A model generated the notes under the pieces. It ran no database searches, was not told where the DNA came from, and saw nothing but the letters and a program-made list of their open reading frames with translations. Positions 2,231 to 64,000 of a DNA stretch of 64,000 nt are shown here, piece by piece. The translations under genes were made by a program, and so were the position numbers. The stretch comes from Minisyncoccota bacterium (GTDB lineage: Bacteria > Patescibacteriota > Minisyncoccia > Phycocordibacterales > UBA9973): NCBI GenBank assembly GCA_041650615.1, contig JBAZKU010000001.1:458750-522749 (forward strand). Reading direction: 5' to 3'. The stretch's first letter is position 1. The number at the start of each line of letters is the position of its first letter.

Positions 2231-4672
2231 TTATTTAACCTCTCCAAAATTATTACCTGAACCGGAATGCACTATCAAAGGAATGTCAGTTTTATAATGC
2301 AAATATGACCGTTCAAGCACTGTCTGCATGGCATTTTTTATTATTTTTTCAGCTTCCGAAAGCTCTTTCCCCTCTACTTCATAAACTAATTCATCGTGTA
2401 TTTGGAGCACAAGATGAGTCTTATTCAACAGATCTGCTTTTTTTAAGTCTTCCTCCGCATATCTTATGGCTAACTTTATTATATCGGCGGTAGCTGTCCC
2501 CTGGACCGGCGCATTAGTAGCGGTACGTTCAGCCATATTTTTTAAAAATGGAATTCTAGAATTTATATTTGGGAAATATCTGCGTCTGCCAAATAATGTT
2601 TCCGTATAAAAATTTTTCATCGCAAATACTTTTACTTTCTCCAAATAATTTCGCACGCCGGAAAATTGGTTAAAATAATTATCATAGAATTTTTGCGCTT
2701 CGGGACGAGTTCCTCCCAAGCTTTTGCGCAAAGACGAGACTCCCATGCCATAGATAATGCCGAAGTTTATTACCTTGGCTTTGCGTCGCATTTCATTATC
2801 TACTTTTTCCATAGGTATGCCAAAAACAAACGAGGCTACCCCTGCGTGAATATCTTTGCCTTCACGAAATATCTGGGTCATTTTTTTATCTCCTGAAAGC
2901 ATCGCTATCACTCGAAGTTCAATTTGACTATAGTCAAAGGTCAAAAGTTTATATCCTTTTTCCGCGATAAAACCATTTCTTATTTTCTTGCCCAATTCTG
3001 TTTTTATCGGCAAATTTTGCAAATTTGGATCTTGGGAAGAAAATCTTCCCGTAGTTGTGCCATTTTGTAAAAATTTTGCATGTAAACGGCCATCTTCACT
3101 GACCATTTTAGGAATCACATCAATATAAGTAGAAAGCAGTTTTTGTAATTCTCTATAAGCCAAAATTTCTTTTATGATCGGATTATTTTCCTCCAATTCT
3201 TCCAGGACTGAAACTTTAGTGGAAAAAGATCCGTTTACTCCTTTTTTCTTGCCTGATTTCATTCCCATTTTGCCGAAAATTATTTCACCTAGCTGTTTGG
3301 GTGAGTTGATATTAAATTCTGTACCAGCTATTTTATATATTTTAGCCGTCAGTTTATCCAGCTCTTGGTGATATTCTTTTGACAAATTTTCAAAATATTT
3401 TTTATCTATCAAAATACCGTAATTCTGCATTTCTTTTACTGTATGTATTATCGGTTTTTCTATTTCTTCATACACTTTGTCTAGTTTTTTTTCTTTTAAT
3501 TGTTTAAAAATATATTCCTGAGCTCTTTCAAAATTATCAGTTCTGGAAAAATGTAAAATATCTTCCAAAGATGGGTTAGTTATATCTGAATTTAAGAGCC
3601 AAAGAGCGATAGAAGTTTCTTGAAGTTTTTCTTCGTCTACAAATGATGCCAGACGACCATGCTCGGAGGAGTATTCGCTGCGACCAGAAATATCTTGCCC
3701 TTCCAAGATAGTGTGCGAACGACGGAGAGCATGGTCGTCTGGCATTTCCCCCTGTTTATTCCCAAAGAAGTTTTTTAGCCGCGCAAATAAGCTTCTGAAT
3801 TCAAATTCGGAGAAAATATTTTCAATTTTTTTCAAATCCGCATTTTCCCAAAAAGTTTTTTTAGGCAATTCAAAATTTATCGGGGCATCTGTTCTTATTT
3901 TTGCCAAAGTTTTTGAAAACAGGGCTTCTTCTTCGTTATTTTTTATAAGTTCCAATATTCTAGGGGAAATGCCATTTTTTATAAATGCATTTTCATCTTT
4001 TTTTAATTTTTTATAAATTTCTTCTATGGTTCCGAAGTTTACAATTAAATTAGTTGCGGTTTTTTCACCAATACCTTTAATCCCAATAATATTATCAGAC
4101 GGATCTCCTCGCAATCCTTTATAATCCGGTAAAAGTTTCGGCTTAAAGCCAAATCTTTCAACCACTTTTTCTTCATCATATAAAATAGTGTCATTGATTC
4201 CTTTTTTTAATGTATATACTTGCACTTTTTTATCATCTATCAGTTGCATAGTATCCATATCGCCTGAAGCAATAATTATATTCATATTTTTGTCTTTCTT
4301 TAGTTCTTTTACTATGGTACCCAACACATCATCCGCTTCAAACCCCGGCGCATCATAAATAGGAATATTAAATGCTTCAAAAATTTGTCTGGAGTTTTTT
4401 AATTGTGCAATAAGACCTTCTTCTGCCTTCGCTCTCCCTGCTTTGTATCCTTCATAAACCTCATGTCTGAAAGTTTTTTGTGGCAAATCATAACAAGCTA
4501 CAATGTAGTCTGGTTTTAGGTCAGTAATTATTTTCATCAACATAGTAGAAAGCCCATATAAAGCCCCTGTCGGCTCGCCCTTGGATGATAAAAACTCCGG
4601 CAGGGCATGATAGGCGCGGTGTATTATCGCATGCGCATCCAGTAATACTAATGTCTTATTTTCCTTAGCCAT
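2231..4672 (-). CDS. polA: DNA polymerase I
   Basis: 5'-3' exonuclease N-terminus, DYSQIELRV and QIHDELV polymerase motifs; carries an in-frame palindromic insert at 3649-3742. Confidence 0.95.
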   Translation of the reverse strand: MAKENKTLVLLDAHAIIHRAYHALPEFLSSKGEPTGALYGLSTMLMKIITDLKPDYIVACYDLPQKTFRHEVYEGYKAGRAKAEEGLIAQLKNSRQIFEAFNIPIYDAPGFEADDVLGTIVKELKKDKNMNIIIASGDMDTMQLIDDKKVQVYTLKKGINDTILYDEEKVVERFGFKPKLLPDYKGLRGDPSDNIIGIKGIGEKTATNLIVNFGTIEEIYKKLKKDENAFIKNGISPRILELIKNNEEEALFSKTLAKIRTDAPINFELPKKTFWENADLKKIENIFSEFEFRSLFARLKNFFGNKQGEMPDDHALRRSHTILEGQDISGRSEYSSEHGRLASFVDEEKLQETSIALWLLNSDITNPSLEDILHFSRTDNFERAQEYIFKQLKEKKLDKVYEEIEKPIIHTVKEMQNYGILIDKKYFENLSKEYHQELDKLTAKIYKIAGTEFNINSPKQLGEIIFGKMGMKSGKKKGVNGSFSTKVSVLEELEENNPIIKEILAYRELQKLLSTYIDVIPKMVSEDGRLHAKFLQNGTTTGRFSSQDPNLQNLPIKTELGKKIRNGFIAEKGYKLLTFDYSQIELRVIAMLSGDKKMTQIFREGKDIHAGVASFVFGIPMEKVDNEMRRKAKVINFGIIYGMGVSSLRKSLGGTRPEAQKFYDNYFNQFSGVRNYLEKVKVFAMKNFYTETLFGRRRYFPNINSRIPFLKNMAERTATNAPVQGTATADIIKLAIRYAEEDLKKADLLNKTHLVLQIHDELVYEVEGKELSEAEKIIKNAMQTVLERSYLHYKTDIPLIVHSGSGNNFGEVK
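3649..3742. repeat. GC-rich palindromic element inserted in frame in polA (16-nt terminal inverted repeats CCAGACGACCATGCTC / GAGCATGGTCGTCTGG)
   Basis: Perfect 16-nt inverted repeat flanking ~62 nt of GC-rich sequence inside a ~33% GC gene; encodes ...DDHALRRSHTILEGQDISGRSEYSSEHGRLAS... with no stop. Confidence 0.7.
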
Positions 4673-18329: not shown

Positions 18330-18864
18330 AATTGAAATGCAAAATTTAATAAAAGAGCTTATTGAAAAAACCACTATCCCAGTAAATAAAATTTCTACAG
18401 ATGAAGATAGGCCTGTTTCTCTCAACTCAAATGGAGACAAAACCACCTGGTTTTCAGTGGAAGTAAGTCAACCGCATTTTTTCTGGGAACGCGGAGGTGA
18501 AGCTCTTTTTGCTATTAATCATCTTGCTCGCAGAATGATTGAAGCCAAAACTCTCAAAATAGCCCCCAAGTCGGACTTAGGGGATTCCCCTAAGTCCGAC
18601 TTGGGGATACCACAAGAAGGATTGGGAATTTTGATTGACATTAATGGTTTTCAAAAAAAACGTATAGAAAATATCCATGCAATAGCGCATATGATGGCCG
18701 AAAGAGCTAGATATTTTAAATCAAACATAGAAGTTGATCCGATGCCAGCCTTTGAACGTAGAATAGTTCATGAATTTTTATCTAGTGCAACTGATTTAAA
18801 AACTGAATCACAAGGCGAAGGTTTTGCCCGCCGAGTAGTTATCAAGTATATAGGGGCTATATAA
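18322..18864 (+). CDS. jag: Jag/KhpB-like RNA-binding protein (KH + R3H)
   Basis: R3H motif RRIVHEFL; contains an in-frame 43-nt perfect palindrome. Confidence 0.8.
   Translation: MNKIEMQNLIKELIEKTTIPVNKISTDEDRPVSLNSNGDKTTWFSVEVSQPHFFWERGGEALFAINHLARRMIEAKTLKIAPKSDLGDSPKSDLGIPQEGLGILIDINGFQKKRIENIHAIAHMMAERARYFKSNIEVDPMPAFERRIVHEFLSSATDLKTESQGEGFARRVVIKYIGAI
18564..18606. repeat. Perfect 20/20 palindrome (CCCCAAGTCGGACTTAGGGG-ATT-CCCCTAAGTCCGACTTGGGG) inside the jag coding sequence
   Basis: Arms are exact reverse complements; encodes the duplicated peptide PKSDLGDSPKSDLG in frame. Confidence 0.75.
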
Positions 18865-34648: not shown

Positions 34649-35515
34649 CTATCCTTTTTTGTTAATATCTATGGCTTTGGCAAGATTTAACCAATCTTCC
34701 AACGTCAGTTCTTCTGCCCTTTTATTCCCAAGTATCCTGGCGGAAGCTATTCTTCCGTATTTTGAGAGAGTTTTTAAATTTGAAGAGAGTTTTTTTCTCT
34801 TATGCGCAAAACCAGCGTGAATTATTTCCCAAAATTTCTCTTCATTTATTTTATTTTTAATAAAATTTTTTCTGGAAATATTTTTAATAGCAATGACCAC
34901 TGAATTCACATTAGGAACGGGTGAAAAGTACCGTGCCGGTACCTTCATAATCGTTTCAGGATTTCCATATGCTTTTACCGAGATTGAAAGAATGCTTTCT
35001 TTTTTATCTCTAGCCATAATTCTTTTGGCGACTTCGTTTTGAACCATCAATATCATTCTTTCCGGCTGATTTTTCTCCGTCAGAAATTTTTTTAATATTG
35101 CGCCAGTGATATTGTAAGGTATGTTGGCAATAATTTTATATTCAAAATCTGGGTGTTTCTTTCGATTTTGAGCTTCCCGAGGGGCCCACTCGGTAATCCG
35201 AGAAGGGCGCAGGGACGAAAAATCGGAAGAAACATCCAGATTTAAGATATCGTCATTTATTAGGATCAATTTCTCATCTTTAATTTCCTTAGAAAATTTT
35301 TCTTGCAAAAATTTAAAAAGTTCATAGTCTTTCTCTATGGCAATTACACAGCCAGCTCTTTCTAAAAGTTTTTCTGTCAGTGCGCCTTTTCCAGGACCGA
35401 TTTCTAAAATAATATCTTCTTCAGAGATTTCCCCAGCTTCCACTATTTTTTTTAGCGCCAAAGCAGACTTTAAAAAATTTTGCCCTAATGATTTTTTTGC
35501 CTTGTATATTTTCAT
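34649..35515 (-). CDS. rsmA: 16S rRNA (adenine1518/1519-N6)-dimethyltransferase
   Basis: LGQNFL motif and SAM-binding EIGPGKGALT; carries an in-frame GC-rich repeat insert at 35170-35223. Confidence 0.9.
   Translation of the reverse strand: MKIYKAKKSLGQNFLKSALALKKIVEAGEISEEDIILEIGPGKGALTEKLLERAGCVIAIEKDYELFKFLQEKFSKEIKDEKLILINDDILNLDVSSDFSSLRPSRITEWAPREAQNRKKHPDFEYKIIANIPYNITGAILKKFLTEKNQPERMILMVQNEVAKRIMARDKKESILSISVKAYGNPETIMKVPARYFSPVPNVNSVVIAIKNISRKNFIKNKINEEKFWEIIHAGFAHKRKKLSSNLKTLSKYGRIASARILGNKRAEELTLEDWLNLAKAIDINKKG
35170..35223 (-). repeat. Family C GC-rich palindromic element inserted in frame in rsmA
   Basis: ~54 nt nearly identical (reverse complement) to the intergenic copy at 51432-51481; encodes SLRPSRITEWAPREAQNR. 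Confidence 0.75.
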
Positions 35516-37584
35516 ATATAAATTGTTTTTATTCCGCCCTTTTCCCTTTCTTTTTCTATAATATCACTGGGAATATCAGAAATGAATTCTGATGGAGTAT
35601 TTATTTGGCGCGAACCGAAAATAGTGCGGAAATTTACAAACGATAAAAATAATTTTTCTTTGGCGCGAGTAAGCGCGACATAAAAAAGTCTACGTTCTTC
35701 TTCCTTATCTTCGGCATTTTTTATTTCACCATCTCTTTGGTGCGGAAAAAGTCCGTCTTCTAATCCTGTGACAAAAACATATTTGAACTCAAGTCCTTTT
35801 GAAGCATGCACGGTCATTAATTTTACGGCATTTTTATTTTCTTTTTTTTCTTGATTAAACATCATTCCGTCTTGATCCGAAGCCAAAGAAGCATCTTCTA
35901 AAAGTTTTTCTATTCCTGTCCCATCCTTTAAATCATTATATTTTAAGGCTAAAGTAGCCAATTCCTTTATATTTTCCAACCTTTCCATGTCTTCTTCGGT
36001 GCCGGAAAGAAGTTCTTTCTCAATGTCGGATTTTTTTATCGTAAATCTTATAACATCAGACGCTTTTTCAGTTACTATTTTTTCTTTTATTTCTTCCAAT
36101 GTTTTATAGAAATTATCAACTTTTGTTTTTACTTTTATTGGTAATGTTTCTTTTTCGCCGGCGAAAATTTTAGCTAGAGTTACTTTTCCTATTCCCCTTG
36201 CAGGGAAGTTTATTATTCTTTTTATATCAGACAAACTTTCTCTGTTAAGTGCAGCCCGAAGATATGCGAGAGTGTCTTTTATTTCTTTTCTTTCAAAAAA
36301 TTTAACACCCAAAACTTGATATGGAATATTATATCGGAGCATTGCTTCTTCCAACGCGCGCGATTGAAAATTCGCGCGGTATAAAACTGCGACTTCGGAC
36401 ATAGATGCGGGTGTGCTTTGAGGGGGTGTCTCAGATGGCGAAAGGCGAGGTATTCTCGAGCGAACCCTTGGTAGGAGCGACGGCGACGGACAGAGAAAAT
36501 TTTCAGCAGAAAATTTTCGTGGTGAGTCCGAGAATACCTCACCTGAAGCCCTGTCCATAATCTCTAAAACTTTTGTCGCGACAAAATCCGCTTCGTCACT
36601 TTCATCCAATGCTTCGTAAAAACCGATTTTCTCACCGATTTTATTTTTGGTGAATAAATTTTTATCCGGCCTGTATTTATTTTTCTTTATTATTTCGTTG
36701 GCCGCCTCTAAGATGTTTTGAGTGGACCTGTAATTTTCTTCAAGCAAAATTATTTTCGCACTAGGGTAATCTTTCTCAAAACTCAAAATATTTTTTAAAT
36801 TGGCTCCGCGCCAAGAATAAATATTTTGATCGGCATCCCCTACCACGCAGATATTTCTATTTTTTTCAGAAAGCAAGCGCGACATTAAATATTGTACTTC
36901 ATTTGTATCTTGATATTCGTCAATGTGGATGTAATCCCATTTTTCTTGATAAATTTTTCTAATTTGTTCATTTTCTTTTAACAACTTGGTTGCTTTTAAA
37001 AGCAAATCGTCAAAATCCAAAGAATTTTCTTTGACTTTTTTCTTTTCATATAAATTCCAAACTTGCGCCACTATCCCCCCAAAAAAATCATGCGTTCTTT
37101 CTTTATAATCCGCCAGAGGAGTAAATTTCCCCTTTTCCCGGCTGATTATGTTGCCTATTTTCTTAGGATCGTATTGTTTCGGGTCCAACCCCAGCTCCTT
37201 TAATGATTCCTTTATAAGGGTTGTTGAATCTGATTCATCTAAAATAGTGAAATGTCTGGTTAATCCTAAAATTCTTGCATTTTCCTTTATTATATAAACT
37301 CCCAAGGAATGAAAAGTACTAATAAAAGGTATAGTATTTTGGCCTTTGGCATTTTCCTTAATTTCCGAGATAATTCGTTCACGCATTTCTTTAGCTGCTT
37401 TATTAGTAAAAGTGACAGCTAGAATTTTCTCCGGAGCGATCCCATTTTTGATTAAATTTAGTATTCTATGCGTTATTGTCTTTGTTTTCCCCGCGCCTGC
37501 TCCGGCAACAATAAGAAGCGGTCCGTCTATATGGATTGCTGCCTCTCTTTGTTTACTGTTGAGTCCCCTTAAATGTTCGTCCAT
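35512..37584 (-). CDS. uvrD: ATP-dependent DNA helicase UvrD/PcrA
   Basis: Walker A AGAGAGKTKTITHRI and SF1 helicase motifs; carries an in-frame ~95-nt repeat element. Confidence 0.9.
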   Translation of the reverse strand: MDEHLRGLNSKQREAAIHIDGPLLIVAGAGAGKTKTITHRILNLIKNGIAPEKILAVTFTNKAAKEMRERIISEIKENAKGQNTIPFISTFHSLGVYIIKENARILGLTRHFTILDESDSTTLIKESLKELGLDPKQYDPKKIGNIISREKGKFTPLADYKERTHDFFGGIVAQVWNLYEKKKVKENSLDFDDLLLKATKLLKENEQIRKIYQEKWDYIHIDEYQDTNEVQYLMSRLLSEKNRNICVVGDADQNIYSWRGANLKNILSFEKDYPSAKIILLEENYRSTQNILEAANEIIKKNKYRPDKNLFTKNKIGEKIGFYEALDESDEADFVATKVLEIMDRASGEVFSDSPRKFSAENFLCPSPSLLPRVRSRIPRLSPSETPPQSTPASMSEVAVLYRANFQSRALEEAMLRYNIPYQVLGVKFFERKEIKDTLAYLRAALNRESLSDIKRIINFPARGIGKVTLAKIFAGEKETLPIKVKTKVDNFYKTLEEIKEKIVTEKASDVIRFTIKKSDIEKELLSGTEEDMERLENIKELATLALKYNDLKDGTGIEKLLEDASLASDQDGMMFNQEKKENKNAVKLMTVHASKGLEFKYVFVTGLEDGLFPHQRDGEIKNAEDKEEERRLFYVALTRAKEKLFLSFVNFRTIFGSRQINTPSEFISDIPSDIIEKEREKGGIKTIYI
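36447..36540 (+). repeat. Family B MITE-like element inserted in frame (antisense) in uvrD
   Basis: 12-nt terminal inverted repeats GAGGTATTCTCG/CGAGAATACCTC; ~65-nt core near-identical to the intergenic copy at 43664-43766. Confidence 0.75.
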
Positions 37585-39040: not shown

Positions 39041-39079
39041 TTTCCGCTCATAGTCGAAGACCCTGAGCTTACCGAAGGG

Positions 39080-39150
39080 TCGGGCTGCTGGGAATCGAAC
39101 CCAGTCTAAACGCTCCCAAAGCGCTTGTACTACCGGTATACTACAGCCCG
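39080..39150 (-). tRNA. tRNA-Pro (anticodon TGG)
   Basis: Acceptor CGGGCTG/CAGCCCG, anticodon loop TTTGGGA, T-arm CTGGG-TTCGATT-CCCAG. Confidence 0.8.
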
Positions 39151-39189
39151 ATAAACGATATGATCATAAAAAACAACATATAACGACAA

Positions 39190-39237
39190 CAGTCTAAACG
39201 CTCCCAAGGTGCTTGTACTACTGGTACATACAGCCCA
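39190..39237 (-). pseudogene. Truncated tRNA-Pro fragment (5' acceptor/D/anticodon portion only)
   Basis: ~48 nt with ~88% identity to the 5' two-thirds of the adjacent tRNA-Pro; lacks the T-arm. Confidence 0.6.
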
Positions 39238-39990: not shown

Positions 39991-40142
39991 ATGTAAAAAG
40001 ACCACCAAATATAACCACAATTTAAACAATGTAAAAAGACCACCAAATATAACCACAATTTAAACAATGTAATAAAGACCGTTAAATATAACCACAATTT
40101 AAACAATGTAAAAAGACCCTGAATATAATCGCAATTTTAAAT
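39991..40142. repeat. Tandem direct repeat, 4 copies of a ~38-bp unit (ATGTAAAAAGACCACCAAATATAACCACAATTTAAACA)
   Basis: Copies 1 and 2 identical, copies 3 and 4 degenerate; no spacers, so not CRISPR; sits between two tRNA genes. Confidence 0.85.
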
Positions 40143-41851: not shown

Positions 41852-42778
41852 ATGAGAATTGGAATTTTTGATTCGGGGGTGGGAGGGCTGATTATTGCCA
41901 AAGCGATAAGAAAAATGATGTCGGAATATGATTATGTATATTTAGGAGACACCAAAAGAGTGCCTTATGGTAATCGCTCATATGAGGCAGTTTTTGAATT
42001 CACTAAAGAAGCGATGAATTATCTATTTAAGAAAGAAAATTGCGCCATTGTCATTATTGCTTGTAATACAGCCTCTGCTAGAGCTCTCCGAAGAATTCAG
42101 CGGGAATATTTGGTTGATTACAATGCTACTCGCAGAGTAATGGGGGAGTCTGTTGAAAGAAAAATATTGGGAGTTTTGATTCCAACGGCGGAAGAATGCA
42201 CTAAATATAAAAGAGTGGGGATATTGGGAACTGCGGGAACAATAAATTCGAATACTTTTCCGAAGGAGATAAAAAAAGTAAATTCACAAAAGAAGAAAAG
42301 TTTGCTGCTTTTTCACGGCTCGCACTCGAACTTGGATGCGGTTAACGAGAGTAATCTTGCGTATGCCGAAAAAAGCACAAACTTTTCTTCTTTTACAACA
42401 GTTTTCCAAAATCCTGCGCCGATGCTTGTGCCTTTGATTGAAGAAGGGGAGAGAGTTTTAGCCAAAGAATTTCTTAAAAAATATTTAAAGCCATTTTTAA
42501 ATAAAAAACTGGATGCAGTAGCGCTTGGTTGCACTCATTATCCGTTTTATAAAAGTGAAATCAAAAAAATTCTTGGTCCAAAAGTAAAAATTATTTCTCA
42601 AGACGAAATTATTCCTAAAAAACTAAAAGAATATTTTGCGAGACATCCGGAGGTCACAAAAAAATTAACCCAAAACAGTAAAGCTCAAATACTTGTCACA
42701 GACTTAACTCCCAATATCCTGAAACTTTCAAAAAAATGGTTTGGAGGGAAGATAAAACCAAAACTGATTAGCCTATAA
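41852..42778 (+). CDS. murI: Glutamate racemase
   Basis: GIFDSGVGGL and ACNTAS catalytic Cys motifs; contains a ~35-aa insertion relative to typical MurI. Confidence 0.85.
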   Translation: MRIGIFDSGVGGLIIAKAIRKMMSEYDYVYLGDTKRVPYGNRSYEAVFEFTKEAMNYLFKKENCAIVIIACNTASARALRRIQREYLVDYNATRRVMGESVERKILGVLIPTAEECTKYKRVGILGTAGTINSNTFPKEIKKVNSQKKKSLLLFHGSHSNLDAVNESNLAYAEKSTNFSSFTTVFQNPAPMLVPLIEEGERVLAKEFLKKYLKPFLNKKLDAVALGCTHYPFYKSEIKKILGPKVKIISQDEIIPKKLKEYFARHPEVTKKLTQNSKAQILVTDLTPNILKLSKKWFGGKIKPKLISL

Positions 42779-42873: not shown

Positions 42874-43641
42874 TTAAATCTCCAGCCAAATAGGACAGTG
42901 ATCGGAACCGTAATAATCAGATAATATGCCTGTGCCTTTTATTTTAGCAATGATTTCGGAACTGGCGAAAAAGTAGTCGAAACGCCAGCCAACATTTCTG
43001 TCTCTGGCAAAAGTTTTCATATCCCAATAAGTATAAGCACCGATTTTATTGGGATAAAATTTTCTAAAGACATCTATAAAGTTATTTTTTATTACTTTAT
43101 CTATCCAAGCGCGTTCAATAGGCAAGAATCCGGTATTTTCTTCATTTGCTTTTGGGCGAGCGAGGTCTATTTCTTTATGGGAAGTGTTCACATCTCCGCA
43201 GAAAATAACATGTTCACCATTCTTTCGTAATCTCAGGATAAATTTCAAAAAAGTTTCGTAAAATTCAAGCTTGTATTTTAATCGATGAGGGCCTTGTCCG
43301 CCATTTGGAAAATAAGCAGTGATGATAGTAAAATTTTCAAATTTTGCGCCAACTATTCTTCCTTCACCGTCAAATTTTTTAATGCCCATGCCGTAAAAAA
43401 TTTCTTTTGGTTTTTCTTTTGAATAAATTGCTACCCCACTATATCCTTTTCTTAATTTTGAATATGAAAAATATGAATAATAGCCGGGGACATTGCGCGT
43501 TTCTTCTGTAAGTTGGTCTGGCTCTGCTTTTGTTTCCTGCAGACATAGAATATCGGGCTTCTCTTCTTTAAATAAAGGCATGAAAAAACCTTGTTTTACT
43601 GTTGCTCTTAGTCCATTTGTATTCCAAGAAATTATCTTCAT
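42874..43641 (-). CDS. xth: Exodeoxyribonuclease III (AP endonuclease)
   Basis: MKIISWNTNGLRA start and EEP-fold motifs. Confidence 0.9.
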   Translation of the reverse strand: MKIISWNTNGLRATVKQGFFMPLFKEEKPDILCLQETKAEPDQLTEETRNVPGYYSYFSYSKLRKGYSGVAIYSKEKPKEIFYGMGIKKFDGEGRIVGAKFENFTIITAYFPNGGQGPHRLKYKLEFYETFLKFILRLRKNGEHVIFCGDVNTSHKEIDLARPKANEENTGFLPIERAWIDKVIKNNFIDVFRKFYPNKIGAYTYWDMKTFARDRNVGWRFDYFFASSEIIAKIKGTGILSDYYGSDHCPIWLEI

Positions 43642-43663
43642 ACATTATTATGATAACATAAAG

Positions 43664-43766
43664 TCGTGAAACTAAGATTTTTTCACCACGAAAATTTTCT
43701 GCTGAAAATTTTCTCTGTCCGTCGCCGTCGCTCCTCCCAAGGGTTCAAAAATCTTAGTTTCACGAC
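43664..43766 (-). repeat. Family B MITE-like element, intergenic copy, with 20-nt terminal inverted repeats GTCGTGAAACTAAGATTTTT / AAAAATCTTAGTTTCACGAC
   Basis: Perfect TIRs flank a GC-rich core (GAACCCTTGGGAGGAGCGACGGCGACGGACAGAGAAAATTTTCAGCAGAAAATTTTCGTGGTGA) shared with the uvrD insert. Confidence 0.8.
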
Positions 43767-43767
43767 T

Positions 43768-44682
43768 TTATTTGTGACTGTGAAACTTTTTATGTACATC
43801 TAGTAATTGCCTGTCAGTAACGTGAGTATAAATTTGAGTTGTGGCGATATTGGAATGTCCAAGCATCATTTGAACAGAACGGATGTCTGCGCCGTTTTGC
43901 AATAAATCCGTAGCGAAACAATGCCTAATTATGTGCGGGGTAACTTTTTTTGAAATACCGGCCTTAATCGCATATTGTTTCACAATTCTTTCAATAGACC
44001 TCTTGGTTAATGGACCAGTTTCTTTTTGAGAAGTTTCCTTTCCCACTTTTACAAAGAGCGCATCATCCATATCTTTTCGCAATGCCAGGTATTTTTTAAT
44101 GGCATCTTTCGCTTCGGGAGATATAAAAACCACTCTGATTTTTCCCCCCTTGCCACGAATGGAAAATTGTTCAGATCCGAGATCAATATCATTAGTTAAA
44201 CTACAGAGCTCAGAAACACGAAGACCGGTGGAAAAAAGGAGTTCCAATATAGCTTTATCTCGCAATGATTTTATGTCATTTCCTTTAGGTGCATCAAGCA
44301 GGCGGCGAAGTTCTGTTTGGGTGATTAAATCAAGAGATCTTTCCGTGATTTTAGCCAATTCTATTCTTTCAGCTGGCATTGATTTTATTCCTTGTCGTGC
44401 AAGATATTTCAGAAAGGCTCTTATGGCTATCAGATAATAATTTTGGGTTTTTTTAGACAAAGTTTCGCCTGTAGCTTTATTATTACCGGTGGATTGGCGA
44501 TTAAGCCAAAGACGAAATTCCCGCACGGTGTTGTCGTTTATATTTGTTGGATTATCATTTTTTACGAAATCTAAAAAGCGAGTAAGGTAATGGTCATAAT
44601 TTCTAACCGTATTAAGCGCTCGGCCTCTTTCTATTTCTACATATTCCAAAAATTGAGTTTTAAGCTGTTTGAGGGATGCCAT
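43768..44682 (-). CDS. xerC: Tyrosine site-specific recombinase XerC/XerD family
   Basis: R..HxxR..Y catalytic region HIIRHCFATDLL...LGHSNIATTQIYTHV. Confidence 0.9.
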   Translation of the reverse strand: MASLKQLKTQFLEYVEIERGRALNTVRNYDHYLTRFLDFVKNDNPTNINDNTVREFRLWLNRQSTGNNKATGETLSKKTQNYYLIAIRAFLKYLARQGIKSMPAERIELAKITERSLDLITQTELRRLLDAPKGNDIKSLRDKAILELLFSTGLRVSELCSLTNDIDLGSEQFSIRGKGGKIRVVFISPEAKDAIKKYLALRKDMDDALFVKVGKETSQKETGPLTKRSIERIVKQYAIKAGISKKVTPHIIRHCFATDLLQNGADIRSVQMMLGHSNIATTQIYTHVTDRQLLDVHKKFHSHK

Positions 44683-44720
44683 AATCTAATTTTACCATGT
44701 CGCACAATATTTTAGAAGGA

Positions 44721-44812
44721 AAATCGTTGCCTATGAAGAATTTAAGAAACGTGTGGGTTCCCTGTCCTTTTGACTCCGAGGGCGCAATTTCGAAATTCTT
44801 CATAGGCAACGA
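44721..44812 (+). repeat. Family F structured element in the rpsO 5' region (21-bp closing stem ATCGTTGCCTATGAAGAATTT / AAATTCTTCATAGGCAACGAT around a GC core GTGGGTTCCCTGTCCTTTTGACTCCGAGGGCG)
   Basis: Perfect long inverted repeat; core is near-identical to the copy at 63621-63713. Confidence 0.7.
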
Positions 44813-44855
44813 TAAAACCTTGCAATTTCAACGACTTTATGCTAATGTGAAGTAC

Positions 44856-45119
44856 ATGTTAACCACAAAGAAAAAGCAAACAATTATAAAGAAAAATCAA
44901 ATTCATGAGAAAGATACTGGCTCTTCTGAGGTTCAGGTAGCTGTTTTATCCACTCAAATAGAAGAATTGGCAAAACATTTAAAAAAACACAAAAAAGACA
45001 ACAGTTCTCGCAGGGGGCTTATTAAAATGGTAGCTGATAGGCGTACTCATTTGAAGTATTTAGAACGCAAAAACAAGCCTCGTTATAATGCACTCATGAA
45101 AAAGATGAATCTCGTCTAG
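44856..45119 (+). CDS. rpsO: 30S ribosomal protein S15
   Basis: 87 aa, GSSEVQVAVLSTQIEELAKHLKKHKKDNSSRRGL matches the S15 family; the upstream part of the 44697 ORF is a spurious extension. Confidence 0.9.
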   Translation: MLTTKKKQTIIKKNQIHEKDTGSSEVQVAVLSTQIEELAKHLKKHKKDNSSRRGLIKMVADRRTHLKYLERKNKPRYNALMKKMNLV

Positions 45120-45659: not shown

Positions 45660-45765
45660 AACCGGTTCGCGTTCGGACAAAAAGTAGTGTTCTCAAAAAT
45701 ATTGAGGAACAATACTGTAGTCTGAACACGAACTATAGTCCCGACCTAGGTCGGGATAAAAATAT
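45660..45765 (+). promoter_or_regulatory. Structured pnp leader (nested stems GTTCGCGTTCGGAC/GTCTGAACACGAAC, and palindrome TCCCGACCTAGGTCGGGA)
   Basis: 13/14-bp long-range stem and an 18-nt perfect palindrome directly upstream of the pnp start. Confidence 0.4.
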
Positions 45766-45768
45766 TTT

Positions 45769-47880
45769 ATGAAGAAAAAAGAGTATTCAGTTGAAATCGG
45801 CGGCAAGACATTGACTGCTATTTTCTCGGATTTAACAGAGCAAGCACATGGGTCCGTGATTTTAAAATACGGTGAAACAATTGTGTTGGCAACAGCTTGT
45901 ATGTCCAAAGACAGACAAGAAGGTTTGGGATTTTTTAATTTGACAGTAGATTATTTGGAAAAATTTTATGCTACCGGAAAAATTTTAGGGTCGCGCTTTA
46001 TGCACAGAGAAGGGAAACCATCAGAAGATGCAATTCTAGCTTGCCGAGTGATTGACAGAACTCTCCGTCCGCTTTTTAACCAATCTATCCGTCATGCTGT
46101 GCAAGTTATCACCACGGTCATTTCTTTAGACCAAGACGACCCGACAATTTTGGCCATCAACGCTGCTTCTCTTGCTTTGGCGGTATCTAATATTCCTTGG
46201 GCAGGACCAATCGGCGCAGTGCGTATTGGAAAATACGACGATGATAATTTGAAAATAAACCCCGCGCAGGGATTGCGACAAGATGATACAAAATATAAAT
46301 TTGACTTAACTATTTGCGGGAAAGATGGCAACTTGAATATGATTGAAGCCTCGGCTCATCAGGCCAAGGAAGAAGAATTGGAGGAAGCATTTAAAGTAGC
46401 AAGTGAGGAAATAACCAAATTAGAAAATTTTCAGAAAAAAATAGTGGCTGAAATAGGTATTCCAAAAAGGGTAATAGAAGAAGAAAAAATATCAGATGAA
46501 TCAGTAAAATTATTTAATGAAAATATATTACCGAAAATGAAAAGCGCCCTATTTGCCGGAGCCGGAAAAAAGAAAATAGACGAACTACATAATGTTTGGA
46601 ATAAAATGGTGGCAGAAAAATACCCGGACAGGGATGATTTCACTTTAGAGGATAATCTTTTTGATAACACGGAAAATAATATGCTACACGAAAAGGCTAT
46701 AAAAGAGAACAAGCGCGCCGATGGCCGGGCGATGGATGAAATTCGGGACCTTTATGTTCAAGCTGGAGGAATTTCTTCAATTTTGCATGGTAGCGGAATT
46801 TTTTATCGCGGAGGAACGCATGTGCTTTCTATCCTTACTCTCGCTGGCCCCGAAGAAAAACTTTTAGTTGACGGCATGGAAACAAAAGAAGAAAAAAGAT
46901 TTATGCATCATTATAATTTCCCGCCTTATTCCAGTGGGGAAGTTGGTCGTATAGGCACTACTAATCGCAGGGAAATCGGTCACGGGGCATTGGCTGAAAA
47001 AGCTTTAGCGATGGTTTTGCCGAGCGTGGAAGATTTTCCTTACACTATGCGCCTGGTTTCCGAATCAATGGCATCAAATGGTTCTACTTCTCAAGCTTCA
47101 ATCTGTGCATCCTCTATTGCCCTAATGGATGGAGGGGTTCCGATTAAAGCGCCGGTTGCTGGCATTGCTATGGGGCTGATGTATAAGAATAACAACGAGT
47201 ATAAAATTTTAACCGATATTCAGGGACCGGAAGACCATCATGGTGATATGGATTTTAAAGTTGCAGGGACAAAAGAAGGAATTACAGCCATTCAACTTGA
47301 TGTAAAAGTGGAAGGAGTGCCGATAAAAATATTAGCTGAAGCGATGGAACAATCCAAGAAAGCAAGAATCGCAATTTTGGATAAAATTGAAAAAGAAATT
47401 CCTACACCAAGAGCTCATATTTCTCCTAATGCACCAAAGATTCTGATTATCAGAATTAAGCAAGACCAAATCGGTATGGTTATCGGAAGTGGAGGAAAAA
47501 CTATTAAAGACATAAAAGATAAAACAGGGGCGGAAATAACTATTGAAGATGATGGCACAGTGTATTTAACTGGAAAAGATGATATGGCGGAAAAAGCTAA
47601 AGCTATTATAGAAGAAATGACTCATGAATTTAAAGTTGGAGAAGTGTTGAAAGGGGAAGTGGTTAAATTGGCGGATTTTGGAGTGTTTGTCAGATTAAAT
47701 CCTTTTACCGACGGGATGGTGCATATTTCCGAAATGGCTCCGTTTCGCGTAGAACGAGTTAGCGATATAATAAGAGAAGGGACAATTGTGCCAGTGAAGG
47801 TTATAAAGATTGATGAGGAAAGAGGGAAAATCAGCTTATCAATAAAAGAAGCAGATAAGAATTTTTTTAAGAAGCCTTAA
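45769..47880 (+). CDS. pnp: Polyribonucleotide nucleotidyltransferase (PNPase)
   Basis: Two RNase PH domains, KH and S1 C-terminal domains. Confidence 0.95.
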   Translation: MKKKEYSVEIGGKTLTAIFSDLTEQAHGSVILKYGETIVLATACMSKDRQEGLGFFNLTVDYLEKFYATGKILGSRFMHREGKPSEDAILACRVIDRTLRPLFNQSIRHAVQVITTVISLDQDDPTILAINAASLALAVSNIPWAGPIGAVRIGKYDDDNLKINPAQGLRQDDTKYKFDLTICGKDGNLNMIEASAHQAKEEELEEAFKVASEEITKLENFQKKIVAEIGIPKRVIEEEKISDESVKLFNENILPKMKSALFAGAGKKKIDELHNVWNKMVAEKYPDRDDFTLEDNLFDNTENNMLHEKAIKENKRADGRAMDEIRDLYVQAGGISSILHGSGIFYRGGTHVLSILTLAGPEEKLLVDGMETKEEKRFMHHYNFPPYSSGEVGRIGTTNRREIGHGALAEKALAMVLPSVEDFPYTMRLVSESMASNGSTSQASICASSIALMDGGVPIKAPVAGIAMGLMYKNNNEYKILTDIQGPEDHHGDMDFKVAGTKEGITAIQLDVKVEGVPIKILAEAMEQSKKARIAILDKIEKEIPTPRAHISPNAPKILIIRIKQDQIGMVIGSGGKTIKDIKDKTGAEITIEDDGTVYLTGKDDMAEKAKAIIEEMTHEFKVGEVLKGEVVKLADFGVFVRLNPFTDGMVHISEMAPFRVERVSDIIREGTIVPVKVIKIDEERGKISLSIKEADKNFFKKP

Positions 47881-47918
47881 TGTTATTTAAAAACTCTTTC
47901 TCGGTATATCTTTTTCTA

Positions 47919-47985
47919 GGGTACGGATTTTTTGAAGCTTAAAAAATCCTGAAGTTCTCGGCTCGTCAGCCTCGAAACCCCCTAA
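47919..47985 (+). repeat. Family A REP-like element (copy 1), 39 nt downstream of the pnp stop
   Basis: GGTACGGATTTTTTGAAGCTTAAAAAATCCTGAAGTTCTCGGCTCGTCAGCCTCGAAACCCC; contains a 9-bp hairpin GGATTTTTT/AAAAAATCC. Confidence 0.8.
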
Positions 47986-48021
47986 AAAAGATACACCTTC
48001 AACGAGTTTTTAAAATCAATT

Positions 48022-48894
48022 ATGGAAAACGAAAATAAATTTAAAAATAAAAATGTGGAAACCTATACCAGAGATATGGTAAAGGCTATTGAAAATGATA
48101 AAGGAGGATTGATAAAAAAAATAATTCACGAAGAAGAAGAGCATGAGGCTCAAAAGAAAAATTTATCTCCCGGCTCAAAGAAAAACAGGATATTTATGTT
48201 TATAAGCGTAGCACTTATATTTATAGCTTTAGCTGCTTTGTTTTTTTTGATATTTTTAAATAAAAAAATCGGCACCGTTTCAATTGTGCCACAAATGACT
48301 TCAATTATTTTTACCGATAAAAGTGATTTTAAAGCAATTGACGGACTTAATAAAGATAAAATAGAACAGACTGTTTTAAATCAGGTTAATGATACTGGAA
48401 CGAAGATAGGGGGAATAGATGGCATCTATCTTACGGAAAATAAAGAAACCGTAGGTTTTAAAGAATTTATAAAAATTATAAAAGGCAGTTTGATTGCTGA
48501 CCAGACGAGCTTAATTAGCGACAATTTTCTATTAGGAGCGTATGTAAGCGGCATAAAACAGACATCGCCCTCAGCAGGAGATTTTTTCATCTTGCTCAAT
48601 GTTCGTTCTTTCTCCGATATATTCCCAGTAATGCAAGCTTGGGAGAACAAAATGTTATATGACTTGGGTGGATTTTTCGGAATAGAAATAACTCCCAATA
48701 CCAATTATTTATTTACGAAAAATTTTGAGGATGGCATAGTGGCAAACAAAAATGCGCGAATTCTTTATGATAATAATGGGGGTATTGTTTTGATGTATAT
48801 ATTCGCCGACGATAATTTCATTATCATTTCCAATTCCGAATTAGCTACCCAGGAAGTAATCCTTCGACTGAATTCCAGTAAGATAAAAAAATAA
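48022..48894 (+). CDS. Hypothetical membrane-anchored protein
   Basis: 290 aa with one TM helix after a charged N-terminus. Confidence 0.5.
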   Translation: MENENKFKNKNVETYTRDMVKAIENDKGGLIKKIIHEEEEHEAQKKNLSPGSKKNRIFMFISVALIFIALAALFFLIFLNKKIGTVSIVPQMTSIIFTDKSDFKAIDGLNKDKIEQTVLNQVNDTGTKIGGIDGIYLTENKETVGFKEFIKIIKGSLIADQTSLISDNFLLGAYVSGIKQTSPSAGDFFILLNVRSFSDIFPVMQAWENKMLYDLGGFFGIEITPNTNYLFTKNFEDGIVANKNARILYDNNGGIVLMYIFADDNFIIISNSELATQEVILRLNSSKIKK

Positions 48895-49321: not shown

Positions 49322-49366
49322 TTAAAAAATAATATAAAATTAATGACAAAAGTAAAAAATTTTGTC

Positions 49367-49434
49367 GGTACGGATTTTTTGAAGCTTAAAAAATCCTGAA
49401 ATTGGCTCGCCGTCGCTCGCCAAACCCCTTAAAA
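49367..49434 (+). repeat. Family A REP-like element (copy 2), 46 nt downstream of the stop
   Basis: Near-identical to copies 1, 3 and 4 (GGTACGGATTTTTTGAAGCTTAAAAAATCCTGAAATTGGCTCGCCGTCGCTCGCCAAACCCC). Confidence 0.8.
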
Positions 49435-49466
49435 TCTTTTCTTTTGCCATTAATTTTTTAATAATC

Positions 49467-51008
49467 ATGAGTTTTGCAAAAGTTTATTCAGCACAAGTAA
49501 ACCTCCTTTCCGGTCAAATCGTAACCATAGAGGTTGATTTATCGCGTGGGTTGCACACTTTTAACGTGGTAGGACTTCCGGATAATGCCGTAAATGAATC
49601 AAAAGACAGAGTAAGTTCGGCTATAAAAAATTCCGGTTTTAAATCTCCCAAAGCCAAGAACCAAAAAATAATCGTCTCCCTTTCACCGGCCGACTTGAAA
49701 AAAGAAGGGCCGTTTTTTGATCTGGCTATTGCCCTCGCCTATATGCTGGCGTCGGAGGATTTAAAATTTGATTCTGAGAAGAAGATTTTTCTTGGGGAAC
49801 TGGGTTTAGACGGAACGCTGCGACGTATCAGGGGAGCGTTGCCCCTCGTTCAAGAAGCCAAGCGAGCCGGATATGAAGAAATCTTTTTGCCGAAAGAAAA
49901 TGCGGTTGAGGCGGCATTAGTGGAAGGGGTAAAAATTTTTGGCGCAAGCAGTTTAAAGGAAGTGGTGGAACATATTAATGAAGAAAAAAACAAGGAAAAT
50001 AAAAAAATAAAAATTCAACCGAAAACAGAAGTAAATTTTAAAAAAGAAAGAAAAAATTCCGACTTTTCTGATATTAGAGGACAAGAAGGCGCGAAAAGAG
50101 GATTGGAAATAGCGGCTGCCGGCGGACACAATATTGCTATGTACGGTCCTCCTGGTACGGGGAAAACAATGTTGGCGAGAGCCTTCTCTCAATTATTGCC
50201 GGACTTAGGGTTGGAAGAAGTTTTAGAGATCACCGGAATACACTCTGTTGCTGGAGTAACGCGAGGGGAATTAATTTCCACTCCGCCGTTTCGCTCTCCG
50301 CATCACACTTCTTCTTATGTCTCAATTATTGGCGGAGGAACTTATCCGAAGCCTGGGGAAGTGACCTTGGCACACAGAGGCGTTTTATTTTTAGATGAAT
50401 TCCCGGAATTTGAAAAAAGAGTAATTGAATCTCTACGACAACCATTGGAAGATAATGTTGTTTCAATTTCTAGAGCCAAAGGAACAGCTTCTTTCCCATC
50501 AAATTTTATTTTAGTGGCGGCAATGAATCCTTGCCCATGCGGGAATACCGGTTCAAAACAAAAAGTTTGTATTTGTAGGCCGTCTGATTTGGATAGATAT
50601 AAAAGAAAATTGTCGGGGCCGATAATGGATCGTATTGATTTGTGGGTTTCTGTCGGTAATGTTGATTATAAAAAGTTGGGGGAGGAGGGAAATGGGGAGA
50701 AAAGCGAAAAAATAAAATACAGAGTGACAAAAGCGCGGGAAATTCAAAAGAAAAGATTTGAAAAATTTGGTAGAAAAATACAAACAAATAGCGAAATGAA
50801 TGTGAAAGATTTATCCGGAATGATAAAACTGAAAGAAGAAGTAAGAAATCTACTGGATGATAGCGCCGAACGTTTGGCCCTCTCCGCTCGTGCTTATCAT
50901 CGGGTTATCAAAATCGCCCGCACTATTGCTGACCTGGAAAATTCAGAGGAAATTAACTCAAATCATATCTTAGAGGCTATACAATACAGACCGAAAGTGA
51001 ATAGTTAA
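49467..51008 (+). CDS. comM: Mg-chelatase-like AAA+ ATPase YifB/ComM
   Basis: N-terminal Lon-like domain, AAA+ Walker A GPPGTGKTMLA, C-terminal Mg_chelatase_C. Confidence 0.9.
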   Translation: MSFAKVYSAQVNLLSGQIVTIEVDLSRGLHTFNVVGLPDNAVNESKDRVSSAIKNSGFKSPKAKNQKIIVSLSPADLKKEGPFFDLAIALAYMLASEDLKFDSEKKIFLGELGLDGTLRRIRGALPLVQEAKRAGYEEIFLPKENAVEAALVEGVKIFGASSLKEVVEHINEEKNKENKKIKIQPKTEVNFKKERKNSDFSDIRGQEGAKRGLEIAAAGGHNIAMYGPPGTGKTMLARAFSQLLPDLGLEEVLEITGIHSVAGVTRGELISTPPFRSPHHTSSYVSIIGGGTYPKPGEVTLAHRGVLFLDEFPEFEKRVIESLRQPLEDNVVSISRAKGTASFPSNFILVAAMNPCPCGNTGSKQKVCICRPSDLDRYKRKLSGPIMDRIDLWVSVGNVDYKKLGEEGNGEKSEKIKYRVTKAREIQKKRFEKFGRKIQTNSEMNVKDLSGMIKLKEEVRNLLDDSAERLALSARAYHRVIKIARTIADLENSEEINSNHILEAIQYRPKVNS

Positions 51009-51032
51009 AAAGCAAAGAACAATATTTTTGCC

Positions 51033-51100
51033 GGTACGGATTTTTTGAAGCTTAAAAAATCCTGAAATTGGCTCGCCGTCGCTCGCCAAACCCCTTAAAA
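51033..51100 (+). repeat. Family A REP-like element (copy 3), 25 nt downstream of the comM stop
   Basis: Same sequence as copy 2. Confidence 0.8.
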
Positions 51101-51140
51101 ACATTGTTTTTTGCTTTTTAGGTTATCCACAGGTGGGTTG

Positions 51141-51169
51141 TTGACAGTGAACGCTCGTTCACTTATACT
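51141..51169 (+). promoter_or_regulatory. Consensus sigma70 promoter (TTGACA-17-TATACT) whose spacer is a Cheo-type LexA box GAACGCTCGTTC; TTATCCACA just upstream
   Basis: Palindrome GTGAACGCTCGTTCAC (GAAC-N4-GTTC) lies exactly between the -35 and -10; a LexA homolog is encoded 350 nt downstream. Confidence 0.6.
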
Positions 51170-52409: not shown

Positions 52410-52603
52410 ATTTTTAAAGGTTATTTTTATAATGCTTTCGACCGTTTGCTTATATAAATACTATCCATACATTATATATCAAGGGTTTTTTAAGGCAAGC
52501 TCCCACACTTTCTTCTCTGAAGCGCTAAAAAGCGTATTGTTATCAATATCAGGGAAGATAGTGTGGGGGCAAGTGTGTCTAAAATAGAAAAAGAATAATT
52601 TTT

Positions 52604-52669
52604 AAAGGGGTTTGGCGAGCGACGGCGAGCCAATTTCAGGAAATTTTAAGCTTAAAAATTTCCGTACCG
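52604..52669 (-). repeat. Family A REP-like element (copy 4, reverse orientation), 28 nt downstream of the rny stop on the minus strand
   Basis: Reverse complement matches copies 1-3, so it is sense to the upstream minus-strand gene. Confidence 0.8.
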
Positions 52670-52696
52670 ACTAAAAATTGATTCTTTTTCTATTTT

Positions 52697-63620: not shown

Positions 63621-63713
63621 ATTATGAAAATTAAAAAATTTAAGGCGTCGTGGGTTCCCTGTCCTGTTGACTCCGAGGGCGAAGGCGCAAAAATTTTTTG
63701 AATTTTTATAATT
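63621..63713 (+). repeat. Family F structured element upstream of nusA (antisense to it), with imperfect ~21-bp flanking stem
   Basis: Core GTGGGTTCCCTGTCCTGTTGACTCCGAGGGCG near-identical to the rpsO-leader copy; flanked by ATTATGAAAATTAAAAAATTT / AAAATTTTTTGAATTTTTATAAT. Confidence 0.7.
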
Positions 63714-64000
63714 TATATTAAATTTTTAAATTAAAAAGCCCTGTTTCGACAGGACTTGTACAATTCATAGAGTATCACAAGCTATATTAAAATGCAAGGA
63801 CTTTAGAAAAAGTAATAAAAATGTTGGAATTAGAAAAACAAGAAAGGTTAGTCCATAATTATTGGCATTTGTTTAAAGATTATAAGAAGGCTAATAATTT
63901 AGTTGGAGAAGATATAGTTTTTTAAAAATAAATTTAGAAGCTTTGCTAGATCTTTTCCCGCGGTGATAAAAACAAAGTCTGAGTTTTTTTTATTTGTTTA

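Follow-up and report, generated by a model that had tools for sequence, protein, structure and literature searches.

A probable superfamily of small palindromic insertion elements with conserved folded cores and locus-specific stems in Paceibacteria and Nomurabacteria

We analysed a 64,000-nt window of the genome of a Minisyncoccota bacterium (assembly GCA_041650615.1, contig JBAZKU010000001.1, positions 458,750 to 522,749 of the forward strand; 35% G+C), in which an earlier note had seen one GC-rich core twice, between xth and xerC and within uvrD, enclosed by different terminal inverted repeats. These two copies, here called B1 and B2, probably belong to a superfamily of small (~90–140 bp), non-autonomous palindromic insertion elements that is abundant in Paceibacteria and Nomurabacteria. 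Each element would consist of a conserved 55–70-nt GC-rich core, one strand of which folds into two short hairpins (P2 and P3), and a long AT-rich arm stem that closes a three-way junction. Whole units appear to insert without target-site duplication (TSD), both into spacers, typically right after stop codons, and into permissive loops of housekeeping proteins, where only in-frame, stop-free, hydrophilic readings would survive, each as a ~34-residue disordered loop. Elements seem to be gained, lost and replaced quickly, with identical sites hit repeatedly. The earlier note overlooked both the in-frame translation of the uvrD copy and the genome- and class-wide spread of such elements.

B1 (43658..43771, + strand) was delimited by direct reading of the sequence in the spacer between the genes for an XerC-type tyrosine recombinase (43768-44682, − strand) and Xth (Exo_endo_phos; 42874-43641, − strand), both identified from Pfam and database names. 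Its inner 20-nt arms, GTCGTGAAACTAAGATTTTT and AAAAATCTTAGTTTCACGAC (43663-43682 and 43747-43766), are the perfect repeats described before, starting 1 nt earlier than then given; the perfect inverted repeat is in fact 25 nt long (43658-43682 / 43747-43771), and at 93% it reaches 30 nt. The 64-nt core between the arms (43683-43746) reads TCACCAC-GAAAATTTTC-TGCT-GAAAATTTTC-TCTGTCCGTCGCCGTCGCTCC-TCCCAAGGGTTC. The outer 4 nt of B1 overlap the xerC stop codon, and the xth ATG lies 16 nt downstream of the B1 end. As the earlier note had it, the uvrD copy has an essentially identical core: the B1 core matches 36462-36525 on the opposite strand at 98% over 64 nt, with a common identical stretch of 52 nt (0 matches expected, 100 shuffles).

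B2 (36443..36544, − strand) is exactly 102 bp long, or 34 codons, with a 70-nt core region between two 16-nt arms. It lies in frame in uvrD/pcrA (35512..37584, − strand), whose 690-amino-acid open reading frame (ORF) is open throughout, and adds ~34 amino acids (..GEVFSDSPRKFSAENFLCPSPSLLPRVRSRIPR..) between ..KVLEIMD and MSEVAVLYRANF. Pfam, in a scan that covered 10 window ORFs, and database names back the identity of the host protein as a UvrD/PcrA helicase. The perfect 12-nt repeat GAGGTATTCTCG / CGAGAATACCTC reported for this copy is present, and the outer arms of B1 and B2 bear no relation to each other; the 12-nt length does not stand, however, as the true arms span 16 nt (36443-36458 / 36529-36544; 15/16 complementary). 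A remnant of an older element (..SPSETPPQSTPAS) lies downstream of B2 in uvrD. The UvrD and Xth proteins of the window are 100% identical to those of one Candidatus Paceibacterota metagenome-assembled genome (MAG).

To collect further copies of family B, we scanned species-representative genomes with its P2 motif, GAAAATTTTCTNNTGAAAATTTTC, as an exact 22-mer. About 80 of the 90 loci returned were true copies, nearly all in MAGs of Nomurabacteria, Paceibacterota or Parcubacteria. Every copy has the core ..CAC-GAAAATTTTC-TGCT-GAAAATTTTC-TCTGTCCGTCGCCGTCGCTCC-T.CCAAGG.. and symmetric arms of 12–33 nt with 0–3 mismatches, which vary between loci. Most frequent is a subtype (26 standard copies) exactly 102 bp long with a loose arm consensus, GG.CAAAATATTCTCG; its arm positions are 85–100% Watson-Crick with 2–4 pair types per position. 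For family A, a scan of metagenomes with a 30-mer gave 43 loci, none of them from the contig of the window itself, of which 28 were non-redundant and usable for a gapped analysis of the arms. Here the cores were 97% identical between copies and arm positions 1–12 ~80% identical; arm positions 13–24 fell to the AT-rich background between copies (0.63–0.72) and were 0.90 complementary within a copy. Other genomes hold families A, C and E with the same design and different arms, and a de novo search of 1.05 Mb yielded 112 elements. Across the ~80 family-B copies, the 28 family-A loci and the copies of families C and E, the pattern first proposed from B1 and B2, a conserved core with copy-specific flanking inverted repeats, is borne out. 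The core-proximal 5–20 nt of the arms are conserved within a family or subfamily and the distal part is unique to each locus.

No match to the family-B core was found in viral contigs (0 matches), and searches with the insert peptides returned little (6 short hits in a representative library, 45 candidates in a word-indexed one). In a family-B variant found in four genomes (L003, L017, L037 and L088; L-numbers label relatives' sequences and P-numbers proteins), P3 is replaced by a longer, unrelated hairpin (CAGAAATGTGCTCCCAGCACATTTCTG). The variant occupies at least three different sites (the uvrD N-terminal and main sites, and rsmA), and has thus itself spread.

A three-helix model of the fold was tested on an ungapped alignment of 56 family-B copies, with P1 as the arm stem, P2 as an AT-rich GAAAATTTTC hairpin and P3 as a GC hairpin with a CGTC/GACG loop and, often, tandem G.A pairs. 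In this alignment 81% of cells were paired, compared with 62% when shuffled and 37–53% with the partner slid, and the covariation score was 0.467 against ~0.13 in shuffled or slid controls; the shuffle ignores relatedness and many copies are orthologous, so that these statistics are indicative and not a formal probability. Double (compensatory) changes occur in 25 of 28 arm pairs. Within P3, 43 copies have C-G at pair 66:71 and 11 have U-A, and two non-canonical positions become G-C and C-G in subfamilies. P2 was fixed by the search pattern in the family-B alignment; the uvrD copy of L099 nonetheless carries GAAAATCTTC-AGCA-GAAGATTTTC, a T-A to C-G double change that costs the protein two residues (F replaced by S, and N by D). 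Single-sequence folds were much more stable than those of shuffles (z about −5 to −10, including −8.6). The suggestion that the core might be a structured unit is therefore backed by compensatory changes in the arms, P3 and P2.

The fold is also asymmetric between strands. Arm mismatches are G.T-compatible on one strand of the element in 36 cases and on the other in 7, irrespective of the direction of transcription, and in families A and B this is also the strand on which the tandem P3 mismatches are G.A/A.G. This transcription-independent asymmetry, together with the conserved folded core, suggests that a trans-acting enzyme may recognize the folded core on one specific DNA strand, in a single-stranded hairpin intermediate. 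Known motifs did not account for the fold: compared by eye, the hammerhead and twister consensus sequences were not matched, and a K-turn in P3 was ruled out by intergenic subfamilies with fully Watson-Crick P3 stems. The elements, with loops too large for it, escaped a simple terminator scan.

Inside genes, the elements keep the reading frame without exception. All 54 intragenic family-B copies, each within a long ORF, are in frame and stop-free. One orientation and frame is used by 47 of them, giving the peptide ..LERTLGRSDGDGQRKFSAENFRGESENI..; six have the orientation of the window uvrD copy (..SDSPRKFSAENFLCPSPSLLPRV..) and one is read in a third frame. The hosts are DNA polymerase I (PolA), RecG, RsmA/KsgA, TsaD, Dus, UvrD (at two sites), Fmt, the CCA-adding enzyme, UvrC, UvrB, MetK and RNase H, and the copies lengthen these proteins by ~34 residues. 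In MetK the insert is precisely 102 bp and falls between ..RKHG and VIPWL.., where the Escherichia coli protein reads RKNG-TLPWL. In an AlphaFold model of the window UvrD, residues 347–392 form a coil between a helix and a strand with a predicted local distance difference test (pLDDT) score of 25–29; the model, built on a shallow alignment, is only moderate overall (mean pLDDT 66), and the uvrD insert is accordingly a predicted disordered loop. Variation in the core is spread over the three codon positions as 39:51:58, an evenness that points to conservation at the nucleotide rather than the peptide level. Besides small hairpin elements, the UvrD of L020 and protein P0023 contain an intein-sized insertion (Pfam intein domain PF14890 in P0023).

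The window itself holds at least 12 elements of at least six core families, amounting to ~2% of its DNA and built to a common design, a GC-rich centre (44–67% G+C) flanked by AT-rich self-complementary arms. Families A and B have in common the order arm-P2-P3-arm and a 12-mer, TCGCCGTCGCTC. Of family A, element A1 (47875..48025, +), a variant with GGCT CGTC AGCC as its P3, lies directly after the pnp stop codon; A2 (49330..49463, +) has an ortholog in L137; A3 (51006..51120, +) separates the yifB stop codon from a conserved promoter-like sequence; and A4 (52581..52696, −) directly follows the rny stop codon. The cores of A2 and A3 are identical over 62 nt, and the P2 of A4 shows compensatory changes relative to both. 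Family C is represented by C1 (35138..35250, +), in frame in rsmA/ksgA, and the intergenic C2 (51405..51510, −). Two further elements are in frame in genes: D (42288..42394) adds 35 amino acids to murI, and G (3646..3745), with 19-nt perfect arms, lies in polA. Family E comprises E1 (44723..44813, +), upstream of rpsO and with 21-nt perfect arms, and E2 (63629..63732, +; core GTGGGTTCCCTGTCC.GTTGACTCCGAGGGCG). The rpsO ORF (44697-45119) reaches 140 amino acids only through E1, which is in frame upstream of the S15 domain (residues 60–139), and that of relatives encodes 87; this length is likely a gene-call inflation caused by E1. Right after A3, at 51141-51169, stands a near-consensus sigma-70-type promoter (TTGACA, 17 nt, TATACT) that is conserved in L091.

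At the B1 site, five relatives are empty, with the xerC stop codon and the xth ATG 1–2 nt apart. The closest relative found, L091 (Xth 92% identical, flanks 82–90% identical), carries a family-A element there, beside what is left of the B1 arm. Nine window elements could be compared along 20 kb of synteny with L091: six are absent (B2, E1, A1, A2, A3 and C2), two sites hold another family and only one element, D in murI, is orthologous. The L091 assembly has the look of error-prone long reads; where Illumina-type contigs cover a site, they bear out its empty state. The five empty relatives and the differences between the window and L091 are real insertion polymorphism. No TSD accompanies it. 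Direct repeats at the element ends were lacking in 48 of 80 family-B copies and were only 1–6 nt long and inconsistent in the others, and comparisons of filled and empty alleles showed none, so that TSD, which the earlier note had proposed to look for, was rejected.

The same positions are used again and again. Among 120 close UvrD homologs, the hot spot between KILEILD.. and LSEIAVLYRANF is empty in 17 and filled in 103, with a median insert of 34 amino acids and at least five peptide types; 12 homologs have two elements in tandem. Family B occurs there in both orientations, as does a second family (25 + 25), and the hot spot also holds family C and an FSRVLGSP type. One site in RsmA carries family C in the window (C1), family B in L008 and a third family in L091, and at one PolA site the window has family G where L004 has family B. 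Intergenic copies lie 5–18 nt after stop codons. In L096 (2259-3615), a gene pair of reverse transcriptase (RVT_1) and bAvd, the hallmark of diversity-generating retroelements, adjoins xth. At 45738-45758 the window has a plain GC hairpin typical of terminators (TCCCGACCTAGGTCGGGA) where L094 (position 4162) has a family-A-like element.

The arms are harder to account for than the core. Arms at orthologous sites evolve at about the rate of their flanks, and faithful copying, inverted target duplication and slow compensatory drift each contradict at least one observation on them. One reading holds that only the core and the short inner arms are mobile, the distal stem being built on site by snap-back or template-switch copying of adjacent DNA in inverted orientation (a target-site inverted duplication), with later asymmetric deletions leaving small inversions. 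Three intergenic cases speak for it, in which one outer arm corresponds to DNA already present beside the element and its partner repeats that DNA in inverted orientation. In A2, the left outer arm (TAATATAAAATTAATG) contains the native spacer and ATG of a yifB/comM-like gene, orthologous to the spacer and start codon of L091, and the right outer arm is the inverted copy. In E1, the 9 outermost nt on the left (ATCGTTGCC) are similar to native L091 sequence, ATCGCTGTT. In B1, the arm nearer to xth overlaps a TTCA(A)CGACTTTATG module, which is found ahead of rpsO as well, and L091 keeps a piece of it inverted, as expected after asymmetric deletion between ACT repeats. Also in its favour, a 14-nt segment beside E1 (TGTCGCACAATATT; window ~44683-44696, L091 ~8900) is inverted between window and L091 and may be the footprint of an earlier hairpin element, and no outer arm was common to two non-orthologous copies among the 112 de novo elements, even where cores are identical. 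Yet in most clean filled/empty pairs (A3, B2, D, L025, L062, L131 and L092_0) both arms are missing from the empty allele, the 102-bp intragenic family-B copies brought fixed 16-nt arms with the insert, and outer-arm matches within 400 nt are not enriched (14 observed, 10.5 ± 2.6 expected); short homologies are, moreover, hard to judge in AT-rich flanks of 75–90% identity. We regard this on-site construction of the stem as rather unlikely. Templating of the outer arms from nearby DNA was rejected for lack of enrichment within those 400 nt, and inheritance from donor copies because no outer arms are shared. The earlier suggestion that the stems form locally is only partly supported: it fits the neighbouring-DNA matches of A2, E1 and B1 but not most clean filled/empty pairs, in which both arms were inserted.

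The full form of the module noted at B1, TTCA(A)CGACTTTATG(C/T)TA, precedes both xth (43620-43672, −) and rpsO (44806-44860, +) and may be a promoter or leader. Upstream of xth, the 9 nt that precede ACTTTATG run in opposite orientations in L091 and in the window.

A different account would take the core as a host-selected structured nucleic-acid signal (a protein-bound RNA motif, a terminator or a signal for processing or stability, or a site in DNA), conserved for a cellular function and not for mobility. At the orthologous Fmt site of eight genomes, the core is 96% identical, a figure that ascertainment by an exact 22-mer inflates but that stays at ~94% when the 22 search-fixed positions are excluded, and no 66-nt window of the host gene reaches it (mean 69%, maximum 82%). 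All three codon positions are equally invariant, three helices covary, junction nucleotides are conserved, and the intergenic copies sit 5–18 nt after stop codons with a 15:2 orientation bias. Against this, copies inside genes (47:7) and between them (2:15) face opposite ways with respect to transcription, the mismatch asymmetry follows the element and not the transcript, the elements are absent from the closest relatives at most sites and hence dispensable, and at least six unrelated cores have the same design. Nor did Rfam give a match: only tRNAs scored above the gathering threshold, the best hits by E-value being generic miRNA-hairpin models far below it. The opposite biases and the dispensability in the nearest relative argue against a single transcript-level role, and sense-strand RNA as a unifying explanation was rejected on the orientations in genes and spacers and on the wobble asymmetry; we consider a host signal distinctly unlikely. 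An ordinary MITE (miniature inverted-repeat transposable element), mobilized by a transposase that recognizes its terminal inverted repeats, would be small, repeated, intergenic in position and bounded by inverted repeats, as these elements are, and the core-proximal 5–20 nt conserved within subfamilies could be its recognized part. However, the termini are locus-specific, the centre rather than the ends is conserved, no direct target duplications were found, and no parent insertion sequence (IS) was seen with ~190 copies in 1.05 Mb. The opposite arrangement, conserved terminal repeats with TSDs around a variable core, was not what the copies showed; the earlier note was right that the design is atypical for classical MITEs, a label that fits only loosely, and the MITE reading, now very improbable, is largely refuted here. 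Least credible of all is that selection acts on the insert peptide (..LGRSDGDGQRKFSAENFRGE..) as a protein module, or that the insert, as an intron or translational-bypass element, is missing from the finished protein. One frame does dominate (47 of 54) and the peptide is highly conserved, but conservation acts on nucleotides (the codon-position counts above), the same core is also found between genes and in the opposite orientation, and no Pfam family covers the peptides. Introns and bypass elements need no frame, and the strict frame rule excludes both.

The insertion-element reading has its own difficulties. L091 lacks both A2 and A3, whose cores are identical and whose outer arms are nonetheless unrelated, so that faithful whole-element copying does not explain the arms. 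Conservation of the Fmt core resembles purifying selection on a resident sequence more than the decay of a selfish insert; decayed copies do exist (L047 and P0102), which makes the core constraint common but not universal. The intergenic orientation bias relative to neighbouring genes, opposite to that inside genes, hints at transcript-level effects. Finally, no autonomous version or mobilizing enzyme was found, the ~190 copies in 1.05 Mb all being short (80–150 bp). These points weigh against small insertion elements as the explanation, which we nevertheless prefer. Under it, the complementarity of the arms may be kept, and sometimes extended into neighbouring DNA, by hairpin-templated synthesis or repair, by selection on the stem, or by both. 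Only tentatively would we go further and propose a new class of mobile element, whose 55–70-nt core would be recognized as a folded single strand and, whenever it inserts, gain a locus-specific stem through inverted duplication or hairpin-primed synthesis; such an element would return to the same positions again and again, reshape in this way the surface loops of essential proteins across a major lineage of the candidate phyla radiation (CPR) and, perhaps, be partly domesticated as a structured signal.

Four repeats of other kinds were seen in the window. Three tandem 38–39-nt repeats (AAAGACCACCAAATATAACCACAATTTAAACAATGTAAAA; 91–93% identical) lie at 39997-40118 between tRNA-Gly(gcc) and tRNA-Arg(tcg). 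A 37-nt direct repeat (39102-39138 / 39190-39226; 92%) has its first copy within tRNA-Pro (39077-39151) and may be a partial tRNA duplication. The perfect 21-nt palindrome at 18564-18606 (CCCCAAGTCGGACTTAGGGGA / TCCCCTAAGTCCGACTTGGGG; spacer of 1 nt) does not resemble the hairpin elements described here, and a G/T-rich stretch at 29105-29401 contains short coding repeats (periods of 9–12 and 99 nt), presumably from a repetitive surface protein encoded on the opposite strand.

The elements account for many of the ~34-residue inserts and differences in length that had lacked an explanation in housekeeping proteins of CPR bacteria (UvrD, PolA, RsmA, MurI, MetK, Fmt and others). For annotation, they mean inflated ORFs such as rpsO, false 'novel' protein segments and fragmented protein clusters. 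Their very high turnover and the reuse of sites make them useful strain markers, and they are a possible source of rapid variation of protein surfaces in organisms attached to host cells. An invariant core with locus-unique stems also poses a concrete puzzle about how hairpin DNA moves.

Among known systems, short GC-rich hairpin elements of AT-rich organelle genomes include the GC clusters of yeast mitochondria and the 'byp' elements of Magnusiomyces, the latter skipped by the ribosome and under no frame requirement. Unlike byp elements, all intragenic copies described here are in frame and stop-free, and byp elements, GC clusters and the Volvox repeats are organellar. Like the palindromes of Volvox organelles, ours are short GC-rich hairpins spreading in AT-rich genomes, coding regions included (PMC2670323).

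Bacterial MITEs (Correia/NEMIS, ERIC, RUP, BOX, SPRITE and Nezha) are small, non-autonomous and hairpin-capable with inverted-repeat ends, and are sometimes intragenic and in frame, sometimes terminator-like (PMC10969869, PMC2229807, PMC3184786). The elements here are likewise small, non-autonomous and hairpin-forming, with inverted-repeat ends, but the conserved terminal repeats and direct TSDs of MITEs were not found, nor, among the ~190 copies in 1.05 Mb, was their usually recognizable parent IS. Repetitive extragenic palindromic (REP) sequences and REPINs, GTAG- or CGTC-tagged palindromes mobilized by RAYT, are GC-rich hairpins recognized as structure (PMC3733652), and the CGTC tetranucleotide recurs in families A, B and a 'SQADEP' family. 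The single-strand, strand-specific recognition of REP by RAYT suggests itself as the model closest to the strand asymmetry seen here. However, REPs are 20–40 bp long and lie outside genes, their tag standing at the palindrome's 5′ end, whereas our elements measure ~100 bp, are in many cases intragenic and have CGTC as the P3 loop; and REPINs conserve their arms and vary in the loop, whereas here the arms vary.

The nearest counterpart is the Rickettsia palindromic element (RPE). RPEs (RPE-1 to RPE-10) are repeats of 100–150 bp, found between genes and in frame in unrelated genes, where they encode family-specific peptides; their host proteins stay intact, and the mechanism of their mobilization is not known (PMC1779305, PMC10969869). 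As with RPEs, the elements here are palindromic ~100-bp repeats in both intergenic and coding positions, and their in-frame insertion preserves the host ORF (54/54) with a family-specific peptide at a tolerant position. They differ in their host, which belongs to the Patescibacteria and not the Rickettsiales, and their sequences are, as far as can be seen, unrelated. Turnover between close relatives is very high here, and different families reuse identical sites. Our elements have a conserved centre, a locus-unique distal stem and a covarying three-way-junction core. Given their patescibacterial host, they are an analogue of the RPEs and not members; nor do they belong to the classical MITEs or to REP/REPIN. 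In the searchable literature on CPR, Patescibacteria and Nomurabacteria we found no description of palindromic, MITE-like or RPE-like elements, and elements of this kind, with their unusual combination of an invariant centre and locus-unique stems, have apparently not been reported for this phylum. Protein-coding palindromic repeats have so far been treated as a peculiarity of Rickettsia; the richer, multi-family version in Patescibacteria suggests that the phenomenon arose independently in another lineage of reduced genomes.

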